A stretch of DNA of 64,000 bases from Alphaproteobacteria bacterium (GTDB lineage Bacteria; Pseudomonadota; Alphaproteobacteria; Rs-D84). The stretch lies in NCBI GenBank assembly GCA_017615655.1, contig JAFZZS010000002.1, positions 195,114 through 259,113 on the forward strand, read 5' to 3'. Made by a program: the position numbers and the translations under genes. Of the stretch, positions 18,802 through 43,239 are shown in pieces. Position 1 is the first letter of the stretch. Every line of letters starts with the position of its first letter. The notes beneath the pieces were generated by a model. It ran no database searches. It was given only the letters and a program-made list of their open reading frames with translations, and was not told the origin of the DNA.

Positions 18802-18878
18802 GTGCCCATGGCTCAATTGGATAGAGCAATTGCCTTCTAAGCAATAGGTTGCAGGTTCGAGTCCTGCTGGGCACGCCA
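18802..18878 (+). tRNA. tRNA-Arg (anticodon UCU)
   Basis: Manual cloverleaf: acceptor GTGCCCA/TGGGCAC, D-stem GCTC/GAGC, anticodon stem ATTGC/GCAAT with loop CTTCTAA, T-stem GCAGG/CCTGC, and an encoded CCA. Confidence 0.85.
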
Positions 18879-33780: not shown

Positions 33781-34869
33781 ATGGTTAAAGAAAAATGCCC
33801 GAAAGTTTCTGTATTGGTACCATGCTATAACTCTGAGCGTTATATTGACGAATGCATCACCAGCATTATAAATCAATCTTTAAAAGATATAGAAGTTATC
33901 TGTATAAATGACGGATCGACTGATAATACCCTGGATATAATCAAAAAATATGCCGATTTAGATAGTCGGGTTTTGGTTATTGATAAACCAAACGAAGGCT
34001 ATGGTAAGACCATGAATCGTGGTCTGAACATTGCAAGTGGCGAGTATATCGCGATTGTTGAGTGCGATGATTGGATTGAAAAAAATGCACTGGAATTACT
34101 TTATACAACCGCAAAACAAAATGATGCCGATATGGTAAAAGCGGATTTTGTTTTGTTTGATAATGATACTCGTGTTGAAACGCCATCAAGGTGTTTCGGG
34201 GTCAGCCCAAAAATGTATGGCAAGGTATTTTGCCCGATGACAGATAATTCGGATGTCGCATGGACCGGTCACCCAAGTATTTGGACATGTTTATATCGAA
34301 ATGATATGATTCAGAAATATAAAATACGTTTTGCAGAAACACCTGGTGCGTCGTTTCAGGATATGGGATTTAAACCTAAAACTTTTATAGCCGCACGTTC
34401 ATTTGTATACATACCAAATGTTATACTGCATTATCGCAAACACGCCAATAATTCCGATAAGACAAATAGCAAGATTTTTGAAGTTTGCGAAGTTCATAAT
34501 GATGCGGACAGATGGTTACAGCAAAGCGGGTTGGAATCAAAACGTGCGTGGGATATACTGAATGTCTCACGATTTTCCAATTATGTTTGGAATTTGCGTC
34601 GATTAAGTGGTGATGCCAAGGCGCAATTTACACAAAGATTTCAATCTGATTTTGACAAGATTTTATCCGCAGGAAAACTTAATAGGAATTTCTTCAACGA
34701 TAAATTATGGTTAAAAGTGTGTATAATGGTATATCCAAATAATCCTTGGTGGCGAATTTTGCGTACACTGACCACTTTAATTTGGCCGATATACCGCAAT
34801 AAAGTAGTGTTTGGACACAAAGTATATTACTTGTTCGGGGGGATTGTTTTGAGAAAGGTAAAAGTGTAA
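33781..34869 (+). CDS. Family 2 glycosyltransferase
   Basis: GT-A fold: VSVLVPCYNSERYIDECITSI...ICINDGSTDNT...VECDDW (DxD-like). Confidence 0.8.
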   Translation: MVKEKCPKVSVLVPCYNSERYIDECITSIINQSLKDIEVICINDGSTDNTLDIIKKYADLDSRVLVIDKPNEGYGKTMNRGLNIASGEYIAIVECDDWIEKNALELLYTTAKQNDADMVKADFVLFDNDTRVETPSRCFGVSPKMYGKVFCPMTDNSDVAWTGHPSIWTCLYRNDMIQKYKIRFAETPGASFQDMGFKPKTFIAARSFVYIPNVILHYRKHANNSDKTNSKIFEVCEVHNDADRWLQQSGLESKRAWDILNVSRFSNYVWNLRRLSGDAKAQFTQRFQSDFDKILSAGKLNRNFFNDKLWLKVCIMVYPNNPWWRILRTLTTLIWPIYRNKVVFGHKVYYLFGGIVLRKVKV

Positions 34870-34885
34870 AGGTTGGTATGATAAA

Positions 34886-35719
34886 ATGAACAAGAAAATC
34901 GCAGTTATTGGTGCCAGTGCTTATTTGGCCGAAAATATATCAAATATATCAAAAAATGTTTTGTTGTTTTCACGCGCAGATGATTGGGCTAAGTCTGGTA
35001 ATGCTGATGATTTTGATTGGGTTATAAATTTTTCTATTCAGCCAGAATTTCAGAAAAAAATTTTACCGGAATCTGAATTGATTGATGTTAATATCGCCAA
35101 GATAATTCAAGGCATGAAGACAAAATTCGTAATGATTTCGTCAAGAAAAGTGTATGGGACTTGTAAAACATTAAATATTTTCTATGAAACCGACGAGTGT
35201 CATCCAGCCGATTTTTATGCGAAAAACAAATTAGCAACCGAGCATAAAGTACTAGATTTATTGCCCGAACAATCACTGATTGTGCGTGTATCAAATATTA
35301 TTGATTTTCCATCTAGGCGTCCTGAACAACGTGTGTTTATGGGATGGATTAGGGATTCTATGCGCGAAAAAGGTGAATTGAATATCACTGAAAATCCAGA
35401 TGTAAAAAAAGATTTTATAACACGAGATTATTTTCAACGCGCATTGCGTGATTTAATGAACAAAGACGAATTGGGAATATTTAATGTCGGTGCCGGATTT
35501 GCGGTCAGTCTGCGTGAATTGTTACCTAGGATAGTTGGACGTGGTAACTGTGTGTTTAGTGGCAAGAACAAGGAACTAGCAGATCAATTTATATTAAATA
35601 CTGACAAATTGCATATGGTAATGAAAGCTTTTTCTGTGGACGAATTATATACAAAGTGTGATAATATTCGCAAGGTGATGTTTGATAATATGGGGGCGCA
35701 TGATAATGGCAAAAATTAA
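34886..35719 (+). CDS. NAD(P)-binding sugar-nucleotide epimerase/reductase-like protein (RmlD-like)
   Basis: N-terminal Rossmann motif (IAVIGASAYLA); SDR-like architecture; located inside the glycan locus. Confidence 0.5.
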   Translation: MNKKIAVIGASAYLAENISNISKNVLLFSRADDWAKSGNADDFDWVINFSIQPEFQKKILPESELIDVNIAKIIQGMKTKFVMISSRKVYGTCKTLNIFYETDECHPADFYAKNKLATEHKVLDLLPEQSLIVRVSNIIDFPSRRPEQRVFMGWIRDSMREKGELNITENPDVKKDFITRDYFQRALRDLMNKDELGIFNVGAGFAVSLRELLPRIVGRGNCVFSGKNKELADQFILNTDKLHMVMKAFSVDELYTKCDNIRKVMFDNMGAHDNGKN

Positions 35720-36893
35720 ACACCTTGTTGTTGGCGCCGGAATTTCTGGGGCGACATTGGCGGAAAGAATTGCGAATGTTCTGCATGAACCAGTTGTCGT
35801 TATTGATTCCAGAAATCATATCGGTGGAAATTGTTTTGACTATGTTGATAAAACCGGAATCCGTATTCACAAATATGGTCCGCATATTTTTCATACCAAT
35901 AATCAGGATGTTTGGGATTATTTATCCCAATTTACGTCATGGCATCCGTTTTTCCTGCGTGTACGTGCATATATAGATGGCAAAACTGTTCCTTTTTCGT
36001 TTAATTTGAATAGTATTGCAGAATCTTTTCCACCAACCATGGCACAGCGGTTAACAGAAAAATTGATAGAAAAGTTAGGTTATGGACATAGGATTTCTAT
36101 TTTGCAATTGCGTGAATCTAAAGATGCGGATTTGGCGTTTTTGGCAGATTTTATTTATAACAAAGGTTTTTTAAATTATTATAAAAAACAATGGGGTTGT
36201 ACCCCCGAGGAACTTGATGCATCGGTTGCGGAACGGGTTCCAATTAGTATTTCTACATCGGATGATTATTTTATTGATAGGTATCAAGGTATACCGTCAA
36301 ATGGATGGACACCGATGATTAGGAAAATGCTGGATAATCCATTAATAACAGTTCGTTTGAATACCCCATTTGATAAATCAATGGAATATGAGAACTTATA
36401 TTACACGGGTCCAATTGATGAGTTTTTTAATTTCGAATTCGGCGAATTACCATACAGAAGTTTGACATTTGATATTCGTACATATAATCAGGAATATTTT
36501 CAAAATAATGTTGTGGTTAGTTATCCTAATAATTACGATTTTACGCGTATTTGTGAACATAAGTACTTTCTGGATGATAAATCTGATAAGACAGTTGTAT
36601 CTTTTGAGTATCCATCGGCGTTTGTAAACGGAAAAAATGAACGCTATTATCCGATACCACGTCCGGAAAATGCACGGTTATACGAAAAATATTTGGTTAA
36701 GGCACAAACAGAGTGTGGGAATACGTTCTTCTTTGGTCGGTTGGGGGATTACAAGTATTATAACATTGATATGGCAGTTGCCAGGGCATTAAATTTATTT
36801 GACGAGATAAAAAAACGTGAGGGTGGGAATGTCCAACAAACCAAAAGTTTCGGTTGTTGTGCCAATTTATGGTGGCGAAAAATATTTAAGTAA
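35706..36893 (+). CDS. glf: UDP-galactopyranose mutase
   Basis: FAD-binding VVGAGISGATLA...IDSRNHIGGNCFD...KYGPHIFHTNN, colinear with Glf. Confidence 0.9.
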   Translation: MAKIKHLVVGAGISGATLAERIANVLHEPVVVIDSRNHIGGNCFDYVDKTGIRIHKYGPHIFHTNNQDVWDYLSQFTSWHPFFLRVRAYIDGKTVPFSFNLNSIAESFPPTMAQRLTEKLIEKLGYGHRISILQLRESKDADLAFLADFIYNKGFLNYYKKQWGCTPEELDASVAERVPISISTSDDYFIDRYQGIPSNGWTPMIRKMLDNPLITVRLNTPFDKSMEYENLYYTGPIDEFFNFEFGELPYRSLTFDIRTYNQEYFQNNVVVSYPNNYDFTRICEHKYFLDDKSDKTVVSFEYPSAFVNGKNERYYPIPRPENARLYEKYLVKAQTECGNTFFFGRLGDYKYYNIDMAVARALNLFDEIKKREGGNVQQTKSFGCCANLWWRKIFK

Positions 36894-37971
36894 GTGTGTT
36901 GATTCTATATTGGATCAGACCCTTGCCAATATAGAAGTAATTTTAGTTGATGATGGGTCGCCTGATAAATGTCCAGAAATTATTGATAAATATGCCGAAA
37001 GTGATAGTCGTGTTGTCGCGCTGCACAAAGAAAATGGTGGCTACGGTTCCGCAGTCAATATGGGTATTGCGCATGCCAGGGGTGAATATATTGGTATTGT
37101 AGAAGGTGATGATTGGATTGAACCGACAATGTATAAGAAATTATATACAAATGCGGTTAAAAATGATTCGGATGTCGTTAAGTGTGGATTCTATAAATAT
37201 AATTCTTTGGCCCAAAAAGCAAAAAATATAAATAGAAAATGGCATGTTTCATACATGAATTTATTTGATGCCCCAAGTGGTACTTTTACAATTGCTGATT
37301 GGCCAAAGATAATGATGTGGCACGCGAGTGTTTGGGCGGCACTGTATAAAGCAGATTTTGTTAAAAATATAAAGATGCCAGAAACCAAATCTGCGGCATA
37401 CCAAGATTTTCCGTTTACTTGTGAAGTTATGGCGCGTGCAGCACGAATATCAGTTGTAAAAGAATATCTGGTTCATTATCGTATGGAACAAGGGCAGGGA
37501 AATTCCGCAGTTTGCAGAAATAAACGTGGCATTATGATGGCAACGCAATCAATCGCAGGTATAGATATTTTGTGTAAATACAATGTGTTAGATTTATGCA
37601 AAGAAGAAATATACTATCATGCGTATATTGCATCACGCGGATTTTTTGACAGGATAATGTGGCAATATAAATCTGAATTTTTTGATGAACTTTACAGGTT
37701 ATTGGAACCATTACGTAAAGATAAAAAATTTAAATGGCAGTATTTTAATTCTGCGGACAGGTATTTCTGTAACCATGTGATAATGAATGATTTAATTGGT
37801 GCGGTGCGTGTATGGTATCCACTGACGATTGCGTCATTACGTAAAGTGTTGATATCGGTACGTATGCCGCAAAAGGATTATTTTTCTGGTTGGCGAATTC
37901 AGTTGCTGGGTATCCAAATTGGGTCGCATCTAGATTATTCTGTACCCGCACTTATTAGAATAAAAATGTAG
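36829..37971 (+). CDS. Family 2 glycosyltransferase
   Basis: VSVVVPIYGGEKYLSKCVDSI...ILVDDGSPDKC...VEGDDW. Overlaps the glf 3' end by 65 nt if ATG 36829 is the start. Confidence 0.8.
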   Translation: MSNKPKVSVVVPIYGGEKYLSKCVDSILDQTLANIEVILVDDGSPDKCPEIIDKYAESDSRVVALHKENGGYGSAVNMGIAHARGEYIGIVEGDDWIEPTMYKKLYTNAVKNDSDVVKCGFYKYNSLAQKAKNINRKWHVSYMNLFDAPSGTFTIADWPKIMMWHASVWAALYKADFVKNIKMPETKSAAYQDFPFTCEVMARAARISVVKEYLVHYRMEQGQGNSAVCRNKRGIMMATQSIAGIDILCKYNVLDLCKEEIYYHAYIASRGFFDRIMWQYKSEFFDELYRLLEPLRKDKKFKWQYFNSADRYFCNHVIMNDLIGAVRVWYPLTIASLRKVLISVRMPQKDYFSGWRIQLLGIQIGSHLDYSVPALIRIKM

Positions 37972-38043: not shown

Positions 38044-38949
38044 ATGCCGAAAAAACAAAAACCAATAAATATATTGTTTGCTGCAACATCGGATTATTTA
38101 CCTTATGCCATTGTTACGGCACGTTCCGCGATTGAACGTGCAAATGGTCGGCCAGTAAATATACATTTTATGTATGCGGATATTGTTAAACCAATTCCCG
38201 ATCAGGTAAGGGAATGTTGCTTTGAAATGGCGCGACGCAGTTTGGATGATGTAGATGCGACAATAAATTTCTATGATATTTCTGATAAAATGTTTTTGTT
38301 AGAAGGACAGAATGTCGGCATGTGGGGCCAGGCGATTTCTATGACGCATTATTTTTATCTGTTGTCGCCACTGGTGTTACCAAAAGATGTGGACAAAGTA
38401 ATCTATCTTGATACAGATATGATAGTTAACTGTGATTTAGGTGTCGCCTATGATACCAAGATGAGTTCTCATTTGATTGCGATGGGTGCTCCGCGTGGGG
38501 TTGAAGAAATGGGTGATGATGTTTCAAATTCGGGATTTTCGGTTTTGAATTTGAAAATGTGGCGTGCTGAAAATACGTTAGATACATTATTGGCGTTTGG
38601 GCGTGCATTACCACGTGCGCGTTTTTGTGACCAATACTTGTTGCATGAATATTTCAAGAAAAATCATGTTGATAGAATGATGTTTTTGGCACCCGAATAC
38701 AATTTGTTTCCGCAGTGTGCGATGCATGTTGCATTACAAGATATTAAGATACTGCATTTTACTGGTTACGGTGCATTTAAACCATGGCAAGATGTTTGTG
38801 GACGTCAGCGTGGTGCGCATTTGTGGTGGCGCAGTGCACGCCATACAGAGTTTTATGAAAAATTCATTATGGATATGGTTGCGGTGGGGTATAAAAGCAA
38901 ATCACAACATCATTCATTTTGGTGGCATTTAGTAAGAATGAAATTCTAA
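38044..38949 (+). CDS. Family 8 glycosyltransferase (LPS alpha-1,3-galactosyl/glucosyltransferase-like)
   Basis: NILFAATSDYLPY... and the YLDTDMIV DxD motif typical of GT8. Confidence 0.75.
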   Translation: MPKKQKPINILFAATSDYLPYAIVTARSAIERANGRPVNIHFMYADIVKPIPDQVRECCFEMARRSLDDVDATINFYDISDKMFLLEGQNVGMWGQAISMTHYFYLLSPLVLPKDVDKVIYLDTDMIVNCDLGVAYDTKMSSHLIAMGAPRGVEEMGDDVSNSGFSVLNLKMWRAENTLDTLLAFGRALPRARFCDQYLLHEYFKKNHVDRMMFLAPEYNLFPQCAMHVALQDIKILHFTGYGAFKPWQDVCGRQRGAHLWWRSARHTEFYEKFIMDMVAVGYKSKSQHHSFWWHLVRMKF

Positions 38950-38966
38950 CTATGGGATAAAAAGCA

Positions 38967-39910
38967 ATGCGTTTTTTTAATTTTAAACGAAAAACAGAAA
39001 AATCAAGTGCGGTTGTATCTGACCCAATTCGTATCATTGCCGAAAATGTTTTTACGCATGATGGTTGTGATGAATTTGAATATGAATTCTTGAAACACGT
39101 TTTTCAAAACAAACGCGTTTTGGCAAGTTATGATAACAAGGTGGCGTGGCTGGTTTGTATAACGGCATTGGCGTTGCATGATGATATTGCTGCGGCAAGA
39201 AGTCTTTTCTTGATGTATTATAAACGTTTCGGAATGAATGGTGTTGAATCTTATGAACCAATTTGCCGAATTGCAAAATCACTAGGACTGGGAAATGATT
39301 TAACTAATAAAACCATCGCGGTATATGACAAGGTTAAAAAAATTCGTTCAAAAAAGCGTTTTGAAAATATTATTAAAAAGGCAAAATCTGTTGCAATAGT
39401 CGGGCGTTCACCGGCATTGATTGGTAAAAAATTGGGGCATGAAATTGTGATGCACATGATGTCGTTATTCGGTTTAATATGGCGGATGTTTCCGGCAAAT
39501 ATTCGGTTGATTTTGGCGTAAAAAACGATGTGATGGTTATAAATTGTTGGAATAAAACTGACAATAACGCATTTTATTTATACAAAGATTTTCGGTTATA
39601 TGGTGCATTTTCGGGTGTTATGGATTCTGTTTATAATGATGAGTGTAAAAATGCAGATTTCCTTGATTTTGGGCTAAAGGCGGAATGTTGTCGTGAATCT
39701 GGATTGGTTGATCCGACAAGTGGGGCACTTGCAATAATGTGGGTTAAGAAAATATTGGGTAATTTAGACAAAGTGGACATATATGGCTTTGCGTTCCAGG
39801 ATGAAAATATGAATCTTGGGCATTATGATGGTAAATATGTCATAAATGATGACATTCACAATATGCGAGCAGAAGTAGAATACTTGCGGCAGATTGCAAA
39901 CAAAGATTAA
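38967..39910 (+). pseudogene. GT29-type (animal-like) sialyltransferase homologue interrupted by a 2-bp insertion
   Basis: Frame 1 gives the sialylmotif-L start VAIVGRSPALIGKKLGHEI. Frame 2 (from 39449) continues DAHDVVIRFN, then motif S PTSGALAIMWVKKILGNLDKVDIYGFAF, motif III HYDG and motif VS HNMRAE. Removing TG at 39447-39448 (TTG[TG]ATG) restores a single ~314-aa ORF. Confidence 0.65.
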
Positions 39911-39927
39911 CTGGTTGGTAATTTTAA

Positions 39928-40467
39928 ATGAAGCGGCTAATTTCTAAATTTTCATTGTTGTCACGAATAATATATGGTCAGTCCAAACGTGAACTGCAAC
40001 GCGATATTTACACCCGGTCAATTCAAAAACAGGTTAAATCATGTGGTCTTGGGTTGCGGGTAAATGCGCCGTGTTCTATGACACATAACACAATTTTAGG
40101 TGACCATTGTAATTTTAATGGGATGCGAATAACTGGTTCTGGAATGTGCAAAATTGGAAATTATTTTCATTTTGGTGATGGGTGTCGTATATTGACCGAA
40201 AATCATAATTACGAAGGGGATGAAATACCATACGATTCCACATACATTTCCAAAGATGTAATTATTGGTGATTTTGTGTGGTTGGGTATAAATGTAATAA
40301 TTTTGCCCGGAACCGAGATAGGCGATGGTGCCATTATTCAGGCGGGGGCGGTTGTTCACGGGAAAATACCACCATATGCAATTGTTGGTGGTAATCCTGC
40401 GGTTGTGTTCAAATACCGTGATAAAGAACATTTTGAAAAACTAAGAAAATCAAAGAAATTTCATTAA
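39928..40467 (+). CDS. Hexapeptide-repeat sugar O-acetyltransferase (NeuD/WbbJ/LacA-like)
   Basis: Left-handed beta-helix hexapeptide repeats (IGDFVWLGINVIILPGTEIGDGAIIQAGAVV). Confidence 0.75.
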   Translation: MKRLISKFSLLSRIIYGQSKRELQRDIYTRSIQKQVKSCGLGLRVNAPCSMTHNTILGDHCNFNGMRITGSGMCKIGNYFHFGDGCRILTENHNYEGDEIPYDSTYISKDVIIGDFVWLGINVIILPGTEIGDGAIIQAGAVVHGKIPPYAIVGGNPAVVFKYRDKEHFEKLRKSKKFH

Positions 40468-40482
40468 ACAAAAGGATGAAAA

Positions 40483-41364
40483 ATGACAAGACCAGTAGTC
40501 GTTGCCGAAGTCGGCTGTAATCACAAAGGGGATATGGAAATTGCCCACCGTATGATTAAACTTTTGGGTTGTTTTAAAACATTAAATCCAGATGCAGCGA
40601 TTGATATTGTTAAGTTTCAAAAGCGGACTAACAAGGAACTTTTGACCCCCGAAGAATATAATGCGCCGCATCCACATCCGGAAAATAGTTATGGTAAAAC
40701 ATATGGCGAGCATCGTGAATTTTTGGAATTTAGTGCCGATCAACATAAACTGTTGAAGCAATGGTGCGAAGAAGAAGGGTTAACATATTCTACATCAACG
40801 TGGGATTTAACCGCGGCCAAAGAAATTGTGGCGTTGCATCCGTCATTAATCAAGGTTCCATCAGCAAGTAATTTAGACTTTGATATGTTGGGTTACTTAC
40901 GGGACAACTATGATGGCGAAGTGCATTTGTCTTTTGGTATGACGACCAAAGAAGAAGAAAAAAAGATTGTGAATTTCTTTAAAGAGAAAAACCGTGCCAA
41001 AGATTTGGTTCTTTACGCATGCACGTCGGGTTATCCGGTACCGTTTGAAGATATTTGCCTTAATGAAATAACACGTTTGCGTGAAACATTCGGTAATGAT
41101 GTCAAGGCAATCGGTTTTTCGGGACATCATTTGGGTATTGCGGTTGATATTGCTGCATTGGCATTGGGTGCAACATATTTTGAACGCCATTTCACACTTG
41201 ATCGCACATGGAAAGGAACCGATCATGCGGCGTCGTTGGAACCAACAGGTATGCTAAAGTTAGCACGTGATTTGCGTAATGTGTCCAAGGCATTAACATC
41301 AAAATCCGAAGATATTTTGGATATTGAAAAGGTTCAACGTAAAAAACTGAAACGGAAAATCTGA
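40483..41364 (+). CDS. neuB: Nonulosonic (sialic/legionaminic/pseudaminic) acid synthase, NeuB family, lacking the C-terminal SAF/antifreeze-like domain
   Basis: TIM-barrel NeuB signature (VVAEVGCNHKGDMEIA...IKFQKRTN...GFSGHHLGIAVDIAALALGATYFERHFTLDR). Only 293 aa. Confidence 0.8.
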   Translation: MTRPVVVAEVGCNHKGDMEIAHRMIKLLGCFKTLNPDAAIDIVKFQKRTNKELLTPEEYNAPHPHPENSYGKTYGEHREFLEFSADQHKLLKQWCEEEGLTYSTSTWDLTAAKEIVALHPSLIKVPSASNLDFDMLGYLRDNYDGEVHLSFGMTTKEEEKKIVNFFKEKNRAKDLVLYACTSGYPVPFEDICLNEITRLRETFGNDVKAIGFSGHHLGIAVDIAALALGATYFERHFTLDRTWKGTDHAASLEPTGMLKLARDLRNVSKALTSKSEDILDIEKVQRKKLKRKI

Positions 41365-42377
41365 TGTCTAATATTGCGTTTATTCCAGTACGAGGTGGGT
41401 CAAAATCAATACCACTGAAAAATATCAAATTGCTGGCGGGGCGGCCATTGGTTTATTGGACCGCGGCGGCGGCGAATAATGCAAGGTGTGTCGATCGCGT
41501 AATAATCGCAACCGACAGTGATGAAATTCGTGCCGCAGTTCGCACATTTGCCAATTTGAAAAAAGTGGAACTGTATAATCGTGATGCCGAAAATGCGACT
41601 GATACTGCATCAACTGAAAGTGTTATGTTGGAATATATCAATAAATCAAATTTGAAAAATGATGATATGTTTTTCTTGATTCAGGCGACATCACCATTGT
41701 TGAAATCAGAACATATTGATGAAATGTTCGCAAAAATGCATCGTGATGGCGCGGATTCGGCGTTGTCGTGTGTGCGGAATAAACGTTTTTTCTGGGGCGC
41801 TGATGGAAAATCAATGAACTATGATTATTGTGCACGTCCACGTCGCCAGGATTTTGAAGGTATGCTGATGGAAAATGGGGCGTGTTATATAAATTCTGTG
41901 GGAAATATTCTGTGTAATAAAAATCGGTTATCAGGAAAAATATCGGTTTATGAAATGCCAGAATATACCGCAACAGAAATTGATGAACCTGATGACTTTT
42001 TGATAATTGAAAAGTTAATGGCAAAGTATAACAAACCGCAATTACCCACCGGTAAGACATTTTGTTTTGATATAGATGGGGTGTTGGGGCTGTTTGCAGA
42101 TATCAAAGATATGGCAGGCGATTATGCAAATAATGTGCCAAATATCGAAATGATAGAAATCTGTAATAAATTATATGATGCAGGAAACAAAATTGTTCTG
42201 CATACCGCACGGGGCAGTGGCAGCGGAATTGATTGGTCTGATAAAACCAAGGCGCAGTTGGCGCGATGGGGGGTGCGTTATCATGCATTGACCTTTGGCA
42301 AGCCCGCTGCCGATTTTTATATTGATGATAAAATGTTATCATTGGAACGCTTGAGAATGATGACAAAGTCGCGATAG
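41364..42377 (+). CDS. neuA: CMP-nonulosonate (acylneuraminate) cytidylyltransferase with a C-terminal HAD-like phosphatase domain
   Basis: N-terminal IAFIPVRGGSKSIPLKNIKLLAGRPLVYW (CMP-NeuAc/KDO synthetase fold). C-terminal FCFDIDGVLG...GKP..DFYIDD HAD motifs I-IV. Confidence 0.8.
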   Translation: MSNIAFIPVRGGSKSIPLKNIKLLAGRPLVYWTAAAANNARCVDRVIIATDSDEIRAAVRTFANLKKVELYNRDAENATDTASTESVMLEYINKSNLKNDDMFFLIQATSPLLKSEHIDEMFAKMHRDGADSALSCVRNKRFFWGADGKSMNYDYCARPRRQDFEGMLMENGACYINSVGNILCNKNRLSGKISVYEMPEYTATEIDEPDDFLIIEKLMAKYNKPQLPTGKTFCFDIDGVLGLFADIKDMAGDYANNVPNIEMIEICNKLYDAGNKIVLHTARGSGSGIDWSDKTKAQLARWGVRYHALTFGKPAADFYIDDKMLSLERLRMMTKSR

Positions 42378-42384
42378 AATAATA

Positions 42385-43239
42385 TTATTCAGTGGTTGCT
42401 GCGATACCTTTTACTTCCCATAGGATTGAACTGTTGGCACTGGAATAAACCCTGACCACAAACGTGGTTGTGGTAAGGTTCCAAACTGAATCCGTTTGTT
42501 CGTTTGCGGAACCACTGCCGGGGGTTGTTGTTCCAAAGTTTCTTTGTTTTGTGATAAAGTAATTATTATCCGCCATTTCTATGGGCATTGTAACAGTTAA
42601 ATTTGTCGCGCTGGATTGCGCTGGTAAACGTCCGCCTTGTTCAACCCAACCACTTTTGTATTTGCGATACCATGTATAATTATTCTCGGCAGTTGGATTT
42701 TGCGATGCCACAACATAATCGTAACCGTTTAAAGTGTTTATCGCCGTGGTATGTCCACTAACAGTATCGTTTAATGTTGTTAAATTATCCGTGGTAACAA
42801 AACCAGTCAATTGAGTATGTATTGTTGTCAATTCAGATAATAATTCCGCCAAGGTCGGTGTCGTCGCCAACGAAATCAAATTGTTTATTTTAGTTGTTAA
42901 TTCTTTTAATATTTCAATACATTGATTGAAATCTTGGTTTAGTTGATGTGATTGTAGTTGGGCGGTTGGTTGATAGTCAATATGTCGTGTTAAATCAATA
43001 TCACGCCACACTTTGATAGTGGAATTATTTGTTGGGGCAACCGCGAAATCTATGCGCCCCCCGGTATATGGGATATCTGGTGCGTCGCCAGATGTAGTAT
43101 TTGGGTAAACCGTGAAAGCATCAGATGTTTGTGTGACGTTATTTATACTAACGTGAATATCATTTGTTCCAAAGAACGCAAATGTAAAATAAAAACTGGT
43201 GGTGTTTCCATCGCCATTAAAAGTTTGTGTATTAGCCAT
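42385..43239 (-). CDS. Orphan phage tail-fibre protein with a T7 gp17-type N-terminal tail-attachment domain
   Basis: N-terminal ~120 aa (FNGDGNTTSFYFTFAFF...IHVSINNV...IDFAVAPTNNSTIKVWRDIDLTRHIDYQ...LNQDFNQ) is colinear with the T7 tail-fibre N-domain pattern. A Thr/Asn-rich fibrous middle and a distinct C-terminal domain follow. AAGGAAAAC RBS. Confidence 0.6.
   Translation of the reverse strand: MANTQTFNGDGNTTSFYFTFAFFGTNDIHVSINNVTQTSDAFTVYPNTTSGDAPDIPYTGGRIDFAVAPTNNSTIKVWRDIDLTRHIDYQPTAQLQSHQLNQDFNQCIEILKELTTKINNLISLATTPTLAELLSELTTIHTQLTGFVTTDNLTTLNDTVSGHTTAINTLNGYDYVVASQNPTAENNYTWYRKYKSGWVEQGGRLPAQSSATNLTVTMPIEMADNNYFITKQRNFGTTTPGSGSANEQTDSVWNLTTTTFVVRVYSSANSSILWEVKGIAATTE

Follow-up and report, generated by a model that had tools for sequence, protein, structure and literature searches.

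A bacterial GT29-family glycosyltransferase gene disrupted by a 2-bp insertion in an alphaproteobacterial surface-glycan locus with a candidate CMP-Kdn donor module

We analyzed a 64,000-nt stretch of an alphaproteobacterial genome (assembly GCA_017615655.1, contig JAFZZS010000002.1, positions 195,114–259,113; hereafter the window), centering on a disrupted gene for a glycosyltransferase of family GT29. The gene is a new, inactivated member of a bacterial GT29 branch that has already been described. Our overall reading, held with good though not full confidence, is that it specified a cytoplasmic bacterial GT29 enzyme within a surface-glycan locus, that the enzyme may well have used the cytidine monophosphate (CMP) conjugate of 2-keto-3-deoxynononic acid (Kdn) as donor, and that it was recently killed by insertion of two base pairs. 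Two overlapping plus-strand open reading frames (ORFs), at 38967–39521 (184 aa, frame 0) and 39479–39910 (143 aa, frame −1), are the two halves of this single gene.

The break reads GAA ATT G TG ATG CAC, with a tandem TGTG at 39446–39449 (plus strand). Removing one TG gives a 313-aa protein (314 aa in the first-pass annotation) that reads GHEIDAHDVVIRFN as in intact orthologues, and KSVAIVGRSPALIGKKLGHEIDAHDVVIRFN across the break. Orthologue DNA at this site has a single TG, as GAA ATT GAT TCA in locus L007 and GAG ATT GAT GCT in locus L013, so the window gene has two bases too many rather than one too few. The insertion had earlier been placed at 39447–39448; this is the GT inside TGTG, deletion of which is equivalent, and the orthologue DNA bears out the original claim that a 2-bp TG insertion breaks the gene. 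The protein motif EID[AS]HD occupies the break position in 12/12 full-length homologues, which are 44–65% identical to the repaired protein.

The 5′ part of the gene (38967–39446, plus strand, frame 0, residues 1–160) codes for the helical, TPR-like domain at the N-terminus and for the opening half of sialylmotif L (KSVAIVGRSPALIGKKLGHEI). Without correction, its frame adds 23 junk codons before it stops at 39519–39521. The 3′ part (39449–39910, plus strand, frame −1, residues 161–313) covers the remainder of motif L (DAHDVVIRFN) and motifs S, III and VS. The insertion sits within motif L, and the window gene has no uninterrupted frame over the catalytic domain. Neither fragment can make the in-frame DAHDVVIRFN of motif L, and the transferase is therefore dead.

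Judged by its sequence, the gene encodes a GT29-family protein, as the first-pass annotation had proposed. The repaired protein matched PF00777 (Glyco_transf_29) at E 1.4e-17 and 64.5 bits (cut-off 23); this was the sole Pfam family at E ≤ 1, and no NCBIfam model matched. A profile search of the PDB using a 17-sequence alignment returned mammalian GT29 enzymes only: ST6Gal1 (1.3e-14), ST3Gal1 (7.8e-14), ST6GalNAc2 and ST8Sia3. No other bacterial glycosyltransferase family scored better, and similarity to GT42 (Cst-I/Cst-II type) was no stronger than to GT29. All four sialylmotifs could be located, with L and S, the motifs for binding CMP-sialic acid and acceptor, in the expected order. Motif L spans residues 140–170 (window 39384–39478, KSVAIVGRS...EIDAHDVVIRFN), straddling the break; motif S spans residues 249–276 (39713–39796, PTSG...VDIYGFAF); motif III is HYDG at residues 285–288 (39821–39832); and motif VS is H297-x4-E302 (39857–39874). 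Motifs L and S align to those of ST6Gal1 and ST3Gal1, with core residues invariant in 17 homologues. H297 and E302 are invariant too, and their counterparts in ST6Gal1 lie in its motif VS, HPLLFE. Of the columns that are invariant in the 17-sequence alignment, 16/16 show the family residue in the repaired protein. An AlphaFold model of the repaired protein (predicted local distance difference test, pLDDT, 87.4; predicted template modeling score, pTM, 0.84) has the helical, TPR-like N-terminal domain at residues 20–138 followed by the catalytic domain, which takes the GT-A variant fold of solved GT29 enzymes.

The earlier label ‘eukaryote-type’ was overstated. There is no membrane anchor, the N-terminus being a soluble helical domain instead, and the motif L and motif S cysteines are replaced by Ser141 and Leu266. 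These absences exclude that label, not membership in GT29.

Is the insertion present in the organism? The truncated 184-aa product is recorded on nine contigs. We retrieved six of them, which trace to six accessions of samples or runs: three ruminant metagenome samples of XIEF21, two Logan assemblies of SRR runs and another ENA assembly. No fewer than three assembly sources are represented (scaffolds of XIEF21 at ENA, Logan and a k141 assembly). TGTG was identical in 6/6, and the contigs had 99.92–100% identity to the window over 3.5–12.6 kb. The fragment is also annotated, as MBO4480238.1, in the matching NCBI alphaproteobacterial metagenome-assembled genome (MAG). On the basis of these assemblies, the insertion is real and fixed in a near-clonal strain found in several ruminant-gut samples. 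That the gene is instead intact in the organism, with the insertion a sequencing or assembly error as the first-pass annotation had allowed, would be in keeping with evidence that comes from assemblies rather than reads, most of the contigs belonging to one study (XIEF21) and one near-clonal strain. The same TGTG in six separately assembled contigs from at least three sources makes such an artefact very unlikely; moreover, short-read errors do not typically take the form of a duplicated dinucleotide in non-repetitive sequence, and our homologue search, covering 5.8 billion proteins, found no intact allele above 90% identity, the best full-length match being 65%. The other possibility then offered, a recent pseudogenization, stands. 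The inactivation looks recent because both halves remain open, all 16 invariant columns are kept and dN/dS is low (∼0.11 against the L007 orthologue by the Nei-Gojobori method, a rough value with dS saturated at 2.5).

A different way to rescue the gene would be for the cell to bypass or switch the frameshift, making some full-length enzyme through programmed −1 frameshifting, transcriptional slippage or phase variation. Phase variation is frequent among the sialyltransferase genes of mucosal bacteria, and by way of repeat tracts it is established for Campylobacter cstII and Haemophilus lic3A; the shift required here is indeed −1. Slipped-strand switching would however have only two TG units to work with, too few, and the TGTG site was in a single state in all six contigs; phase variation was rejected on these two grounds. 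Programmed −1 frameshifting and transcriptional slippage were rejected as well: the overlap at 39443–39521 shows no slippery heptamer (X XXY YYZ) on inspection by eye, and a frame −1 TGA at 39440–39442 lies between the upstream A6 run and the break, isolating the run. Furthermore, a −1 shift would put an extra residue into the invariant EID of motif L. We regard bypass in any of these forms as highly improbable. The family hidden Markov model found no second GT29 copy in any of the six frames of the window.

The window gene differs from most orthologues at one more place. A basic N-terminal extension of ∼20 residues (MKIFRKERLPNGRRHIYFMG), conserved in most orthologues, is missing; this may be either a second lesion or natural variation. 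Orthologue P0010 likewise lacks the extension. At this end of the gene we also note an in-frame TAA at 38958–38960, and the stop of the upstream GT8 gene 17 nt before the GT29 ATG.

Two intact plus-strand genes close by would supply the donor, in agreement with the earlier naming of neuB and neuA as neighbors. The first (40483–41364) encodes a NeuB-family nonulosonate synthase of 293 aa (PF03102, E 1.8e-67), in which no C-terminal SAF (antifreeze-like) domain was detected. Its scores fall below the cut-offs of both relevant NCBIfam equivalogs, NeuB (184 bits, cut-off 399.65) and PseI (125.5 bits, cut-off 340.25), and its best PDB match is 6ncs, a 290-aa ‘sialic acid synthetase’. The second (41364–42377) encodes a 337-aa protein with a CMP-nonulosonate synthetase at residues 1–225 and a small HAD phosphatase domain at ∼230–337. 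The best PDB match of the cytidylyltransferase is 9t4z, the Kdn-specific PpNeuA of Prymnesium parvum (1.4e-37), ahead of mouse CMAS (6e-29) and bacterial NeuA (8e-20 to 2e-16); its best NCBIfam match, PseF, is sub-threshold. The HAD domain keeps its catalytic motifs, with motif I as DIDG (residue 236) and the DD of motif IV within YIDDK (residue 319). It scores sub-threshold on all Pfam and NCBIfam HAD models, its nearest PDB entry being 9iqw, a ‘capsule biosynthesis protein’ (2.9e-12). Mammalian CMAS also has a C-terminal HAD-like domain, which is inactive.

Arg188 of the cytidylyltransferase (NKN-R-LSGK; codon at 41925) aligns with Arg196 of PpNeuA, at a position that is Leu in mouse CMAS. 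Arg196 is reported to act as gatekeeper for Kdn over N-acetylneuraminic acid (Neu5Ac): an arginine there would clash with the C5 N-acetyl group, and R196L switches preference to Neu5Ac (PMC12934254). No UDP-GlcNAc 2-epimerase (NeuC-like) gene is annotated in the conserved cassette or in the rest of the locus. These features fit the route from mannose-6-phosphate through Kdn-9-phosphate to Kdn and on to CMP-Kdn, which has been established for both B. thetaiotaomicron and P. parvum (PMC6200933). The PpNeuA match, Arg188, the intact HAD motifs and the missing NeuC-like gene together make CMP-Kdn a probable donor, at a level that we would call roughly even.

A donor other than Kdn, with the same gene and the same pseudogenization, is the alternative that we take most seriously; we consider it a realistic possibility, if short of probable. 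The sugar could then be CMP-Neu5Ac, legionaminic or pseudaminic acid, or a sugar resembling Kdo (3-deoxy-D-manno-oct-2-ulosonic acid). Two of the matches above lean this way, the NeuB-like protein scoring higher on the NeuB than on the PseI equivalog, while under both cut-offs, and the cytidylyltransferase coming nearest to PseF among NCBIfam models. An acetyltransferase is present in the locus, the arginine rule has exceptions, and plant GT29 proteins are linked to transfer of Kdo or 3-deoxy-lyxo-heptulosaric acid (Dha). Against such a donor are Arg188 at the Kdn-specific position (PMC12934254), the fused and apparently active HAD phosphatase, which points to a 9-phosphate route, and the makeup of the three-gene cassette, which is without the NeuC, aminotransferase and dehydratase genes needed for Neu5Ac, legionaminic acid and pseudaminic acid.

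With CMP-Kdn as donor, the intact pathway would run as follows. The NeuB-like synthase would condense mannose-6-phosphate and phosphoenolpyruvate (PEP) into Kdn-9-phosphate, the fused HAD phosphatase would release Kdn, and the cytidylyltransferase with its Kdn gatekeeper arginine would activate it to CMP-Kdn. By analogy with studied family members, the GT29 enzyme would then place the CMP-activated nonulosonic acid onto a sugar added by neighboring transferases, with the motif VS histidine H297 presumably acting as catalytic base. In the window strain the tandem TG insertion in motif L shifts the frame and stops this last step, leaving the donor-synthesis genes intact.

The nearest sequences to the repaired protein are bacterial, from metagenome assemblies, at 44–65% identity. 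Twelve are intact and full-length, and all carry PF00777. One of them, P0002, is named at NCBI ‘MAG: glycosyltransferase family 29 protein [Alphaproteobacteria bacterium]’ and belongs to GCA_017543505.1. The GT29 gene, NeuB (293 aa) and CMAS/HAD (337 aa) form a trio that is conserved as a cassette in L007–L012 (the P0002 genomes), in a different neighborhood; the window NeuB and CMAS-HAD proteins equal their orthologues in length, and in L013 NeuB and CMAS are likewise next to the GT29 gene.

We compared window 38967–42377 with L007 8001–10983. Protein identity was 95% for NeuB (DNA 82% over 1.9 kb), 86% for CMAS and 79% for HAD, and only 64% for GT29 (DNA 70%). Judging from these values, the transferase evolves at a far higher rate than the donor-synthesis genes, a pattern that diversifying acceptor specificity would produce. 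Around the L007–L012 cassette we also saw a GIY-YIG gene, a protein with a phage-lysozyme domain and, in L011 only, an integrase of phage type (L011 1–312); these neighbors hint that the cassette moves as a unit.

Metagenomic proteins of ∼390 aa fuse GT8 to GT29 (P0013, P0015, P0017 and P0037). These fusions speak for a link in function between GT8 and GT29, whose genes lie side by side in the window. In larger proteins (700–1250 aa) GT29 is joined to GT4, DUF4422, MptE-like or Nucleotid_trans domains (P0033, P0038, P0040, P0049, P0060 and P0101). Ten of the nearest family members were sampled, and all were metagenomic proteins.

These relatives bear on where the gene came from. The first-pass annotation had called a GT29 gene in a bacterium highly unusual and had suggested acquisition from a eukaryote or a giant virus. 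Neither idea survived. As early as 2018, 23 bacterial GT29-like sequences had been reported, 19 of them alphaproteobacterial (Petit et al. 2018, Sci Rep 8:2946, PMC5811610). We found 33 GT29 loci in species-representative genomes, in Alpha- and Gammaproteobacteria, Desulfarculales, Firmicutes, Elusimicrobia, Planctomycetes, Cyanobacteria and candidate phyla. The family profile matched 8,856 protein clusters at E ≤ 0.001 and 135 at E ≤ 1e-30; many clusters are multidomain, with GT29 joined to GT4, GT8, DUF4422, MptE-like or other transferase domains.

Points that could speak for recent acquisition from a eukaryote or giant virus are that the best solved-structure matches are animal enzymes, that GT29 genes occur in Mimiviridae, herpesviruses, poxviruses and phage contigs, and that the adjacent CMP-synthetase resembles the haptophyte and mouse enzymes more than it does the bacterial NeuA proteins of solved structure. 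The first of these follows from the solved structures themselves: the matches are all animal because no bacterial GT29 has been solved. The viral relatives in IMG/VR are at most 33% identical and only in the catalytic domain, and the best BFVD match is a Mimiviridae GT29 at 25%. GC content (35.6%), GC3 and codon usage of the GT29 gene match those of neighboring genes. Lastly, the repaired protein is without the anchor and the motif cysteines, like the published bacterial group, whose members have neither a membrane anchor nor the motif L/S cysteines; its authors argued for the opposite direction, with the eukaryotic enzymes deriving from bacteria (PMC5811610). Composition, bacterial distribution and low viral identity led us to reject a eukaryotic or giant-virus origin, of which we think the probability is minimal.

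The glycan locus that contains the GT29 gene is 8.6 kb long, with rplI on one side and a dsbA/recO/groEL block on the other. Gene order is GT2, epimerase-like, UDP-galactopyranose mutase, GT2, GT8, the disrupted GT29, hexapeptide acetyltransferase, NeuB-like and CMP-synthetase-HAD. The upstream part (33781–37971, plus strand) holds GT2, the epimerase/dehydratase-like gene, the UDP-galactopyranose mutase gene (glf) and the second GT2. The GT8-family glycosyltransferase gene (38044–38949, plus strand; PF01501, E 1.9e-23) is directly upstream of the GT29 gene. We identified no flippase, polymerase or exporter within the locus; this suggests that a glycan of the lipooligosaccharide type is assembled stepwise in the cytoplasm.

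The hexapeptide-repeat acetyltransferase (39928–40467, plus strand), between the GT29 and NeuB-like genes, resembles WbbJ, Vat and maltose O-acetyltransferases and may O-acetylate the nonulosonate or a neighboring sugar. It is not in the orthologous cassette of L007–L012; its insertion at this position was seen in the window lineage only.

Immediately after the glycan locus is a minus-strand ORF of 284 aa (42385–43239), with conserved copies in L001 and L002. Over the N-terminal ∼170 residues it matches phage tail-fiber families (PHROG 32829, E 2.5e-8), with a weak match to Pfam Phage_T7_tail (E 0.087). No further phage genes are visible next to it; dsbA-like, recO and groEL come after. L007 has a 726-aa gene in its place, to which this ORF bears no relationship. 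Rfam and ARAGORN identified a single RNA gene in the 64 kb, a tRNA-Arg(TCT) at 18802–18878 (plus strand).

Several points weigh against our overall reading. The searchable literature holds no bacterial GT29 that has been biochemically characterized or has demonstrated activity, and donor, acceptor and linkage are all deduced. The six contigs are assemblies rather than reads, largely from one study and one near-clonal strain. In addition to its frameshift, the window gene is without the ∼20-residue N-terminal extension (MKIFRKERLPNGRR) of most orthologues. On the donor side, the NeuB-like protein is assigned at the level of its family (PF03102), and plant GT29 proteins are thought to use CMP-Kdo-type donors, such that family membership does not fix the sugar. 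The gatekeeper rule has its exception in trout CMAS, which has Leu and prefers Kdn. Finally, the window covers 64 kb of the genome, and beyond it another transferase might make use of the CMP-sugar.

The window copy is direct evidence of surface-glycan loss or variation in one ruminant-gut strain, a common event in bacteria. The more interesting lead is the intact orthologous cassette with its probable Kdn chemistry. Bacterial GT29 proteins are known from sequence only, the searchable literature having no demonstrated donor, acceptor or structure; the window locus and its intact orthologues (for example P0002) tie a GT29 gene to a donor module that is compact and probably makes Kdn. This provides a concrete gene set for expression, and it bears on the idea of an alphaproteobacterial source of eukaryotic sialyltransferases. 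More speculatively, and we rather doubt that it will hold in full, the intact locus could serve gut alphaproteobacteria as a ‘Kdn-ylation’ cassette complete in three genes, namely GT29, Kdn-9-phosphate synthase and a bifunctional Kdn-9-phosphate phosphatase/CMP-Kdn synthetase. If so, among living prokaryotes it would come closest to the eukaryotic sialylation pathway, it would be a model on which the proposed alphaproteobacterial origin of that pathway could be tested directly, and its transferase would be the first bacterial GT29 to which a donor can be assigned.

Among known systems, the closest is the bacterial GT29 group of Petit et al. Both that group and the window gene are mainly alphaproteobacterial in their relatives, and both have a catalytic domain with motifs L, S, III and VS but no transmembrane domain and no motif cysteines. 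The window copy differs in being frameshifted, in coming from a ruminant-gut alphaproteobacterial subgroup with an N-terminal helical domain of ∼120 residues, and in its compact cassette with NeuB-like and CMAS-HAD genes. Its protein is 25–34% identical to Rhodobacteraceae, Rhizobium and Colwellia members found in genomes.

The animal GT29 enzymes (ST3Gal-I, 2wnf; ST6GalNAc-II, 6apj; ST6Gal-I, 4js1; ST8Sia-III, 5bo8) are more distant, at 19–20% identity. Unlike them, the window protein has no type II anchor, stem, L–S disulfide or Golgi context; the helical domain stands in place of the stem, and the stretch between motifs L and S is shorter. The GT42 enzymes Cst-I and Cst-II of Campylobacter offer a functional parallel. 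They have a related GT-A-variant fold and are cytoplasmic enzymes of lipooligosaccharide loci, using CMP-sialic acid from adjacent neuB and neuA. For the donor genes, the nearest counterpart is the Kdn pathway of B. thetaiotaomicron and P. parvum (PMC6200933, PMC12934254), which shares a NeuB-family synthase, a CMP-synthetase with the gatekeeper arginine and an implied phosphatase step. In the window, the putative phosphatase is a small HAD domain that forms the C-terminal part of the CMP-synthetase protein, and this fusion sets the locus apart from the described Kdn systems.

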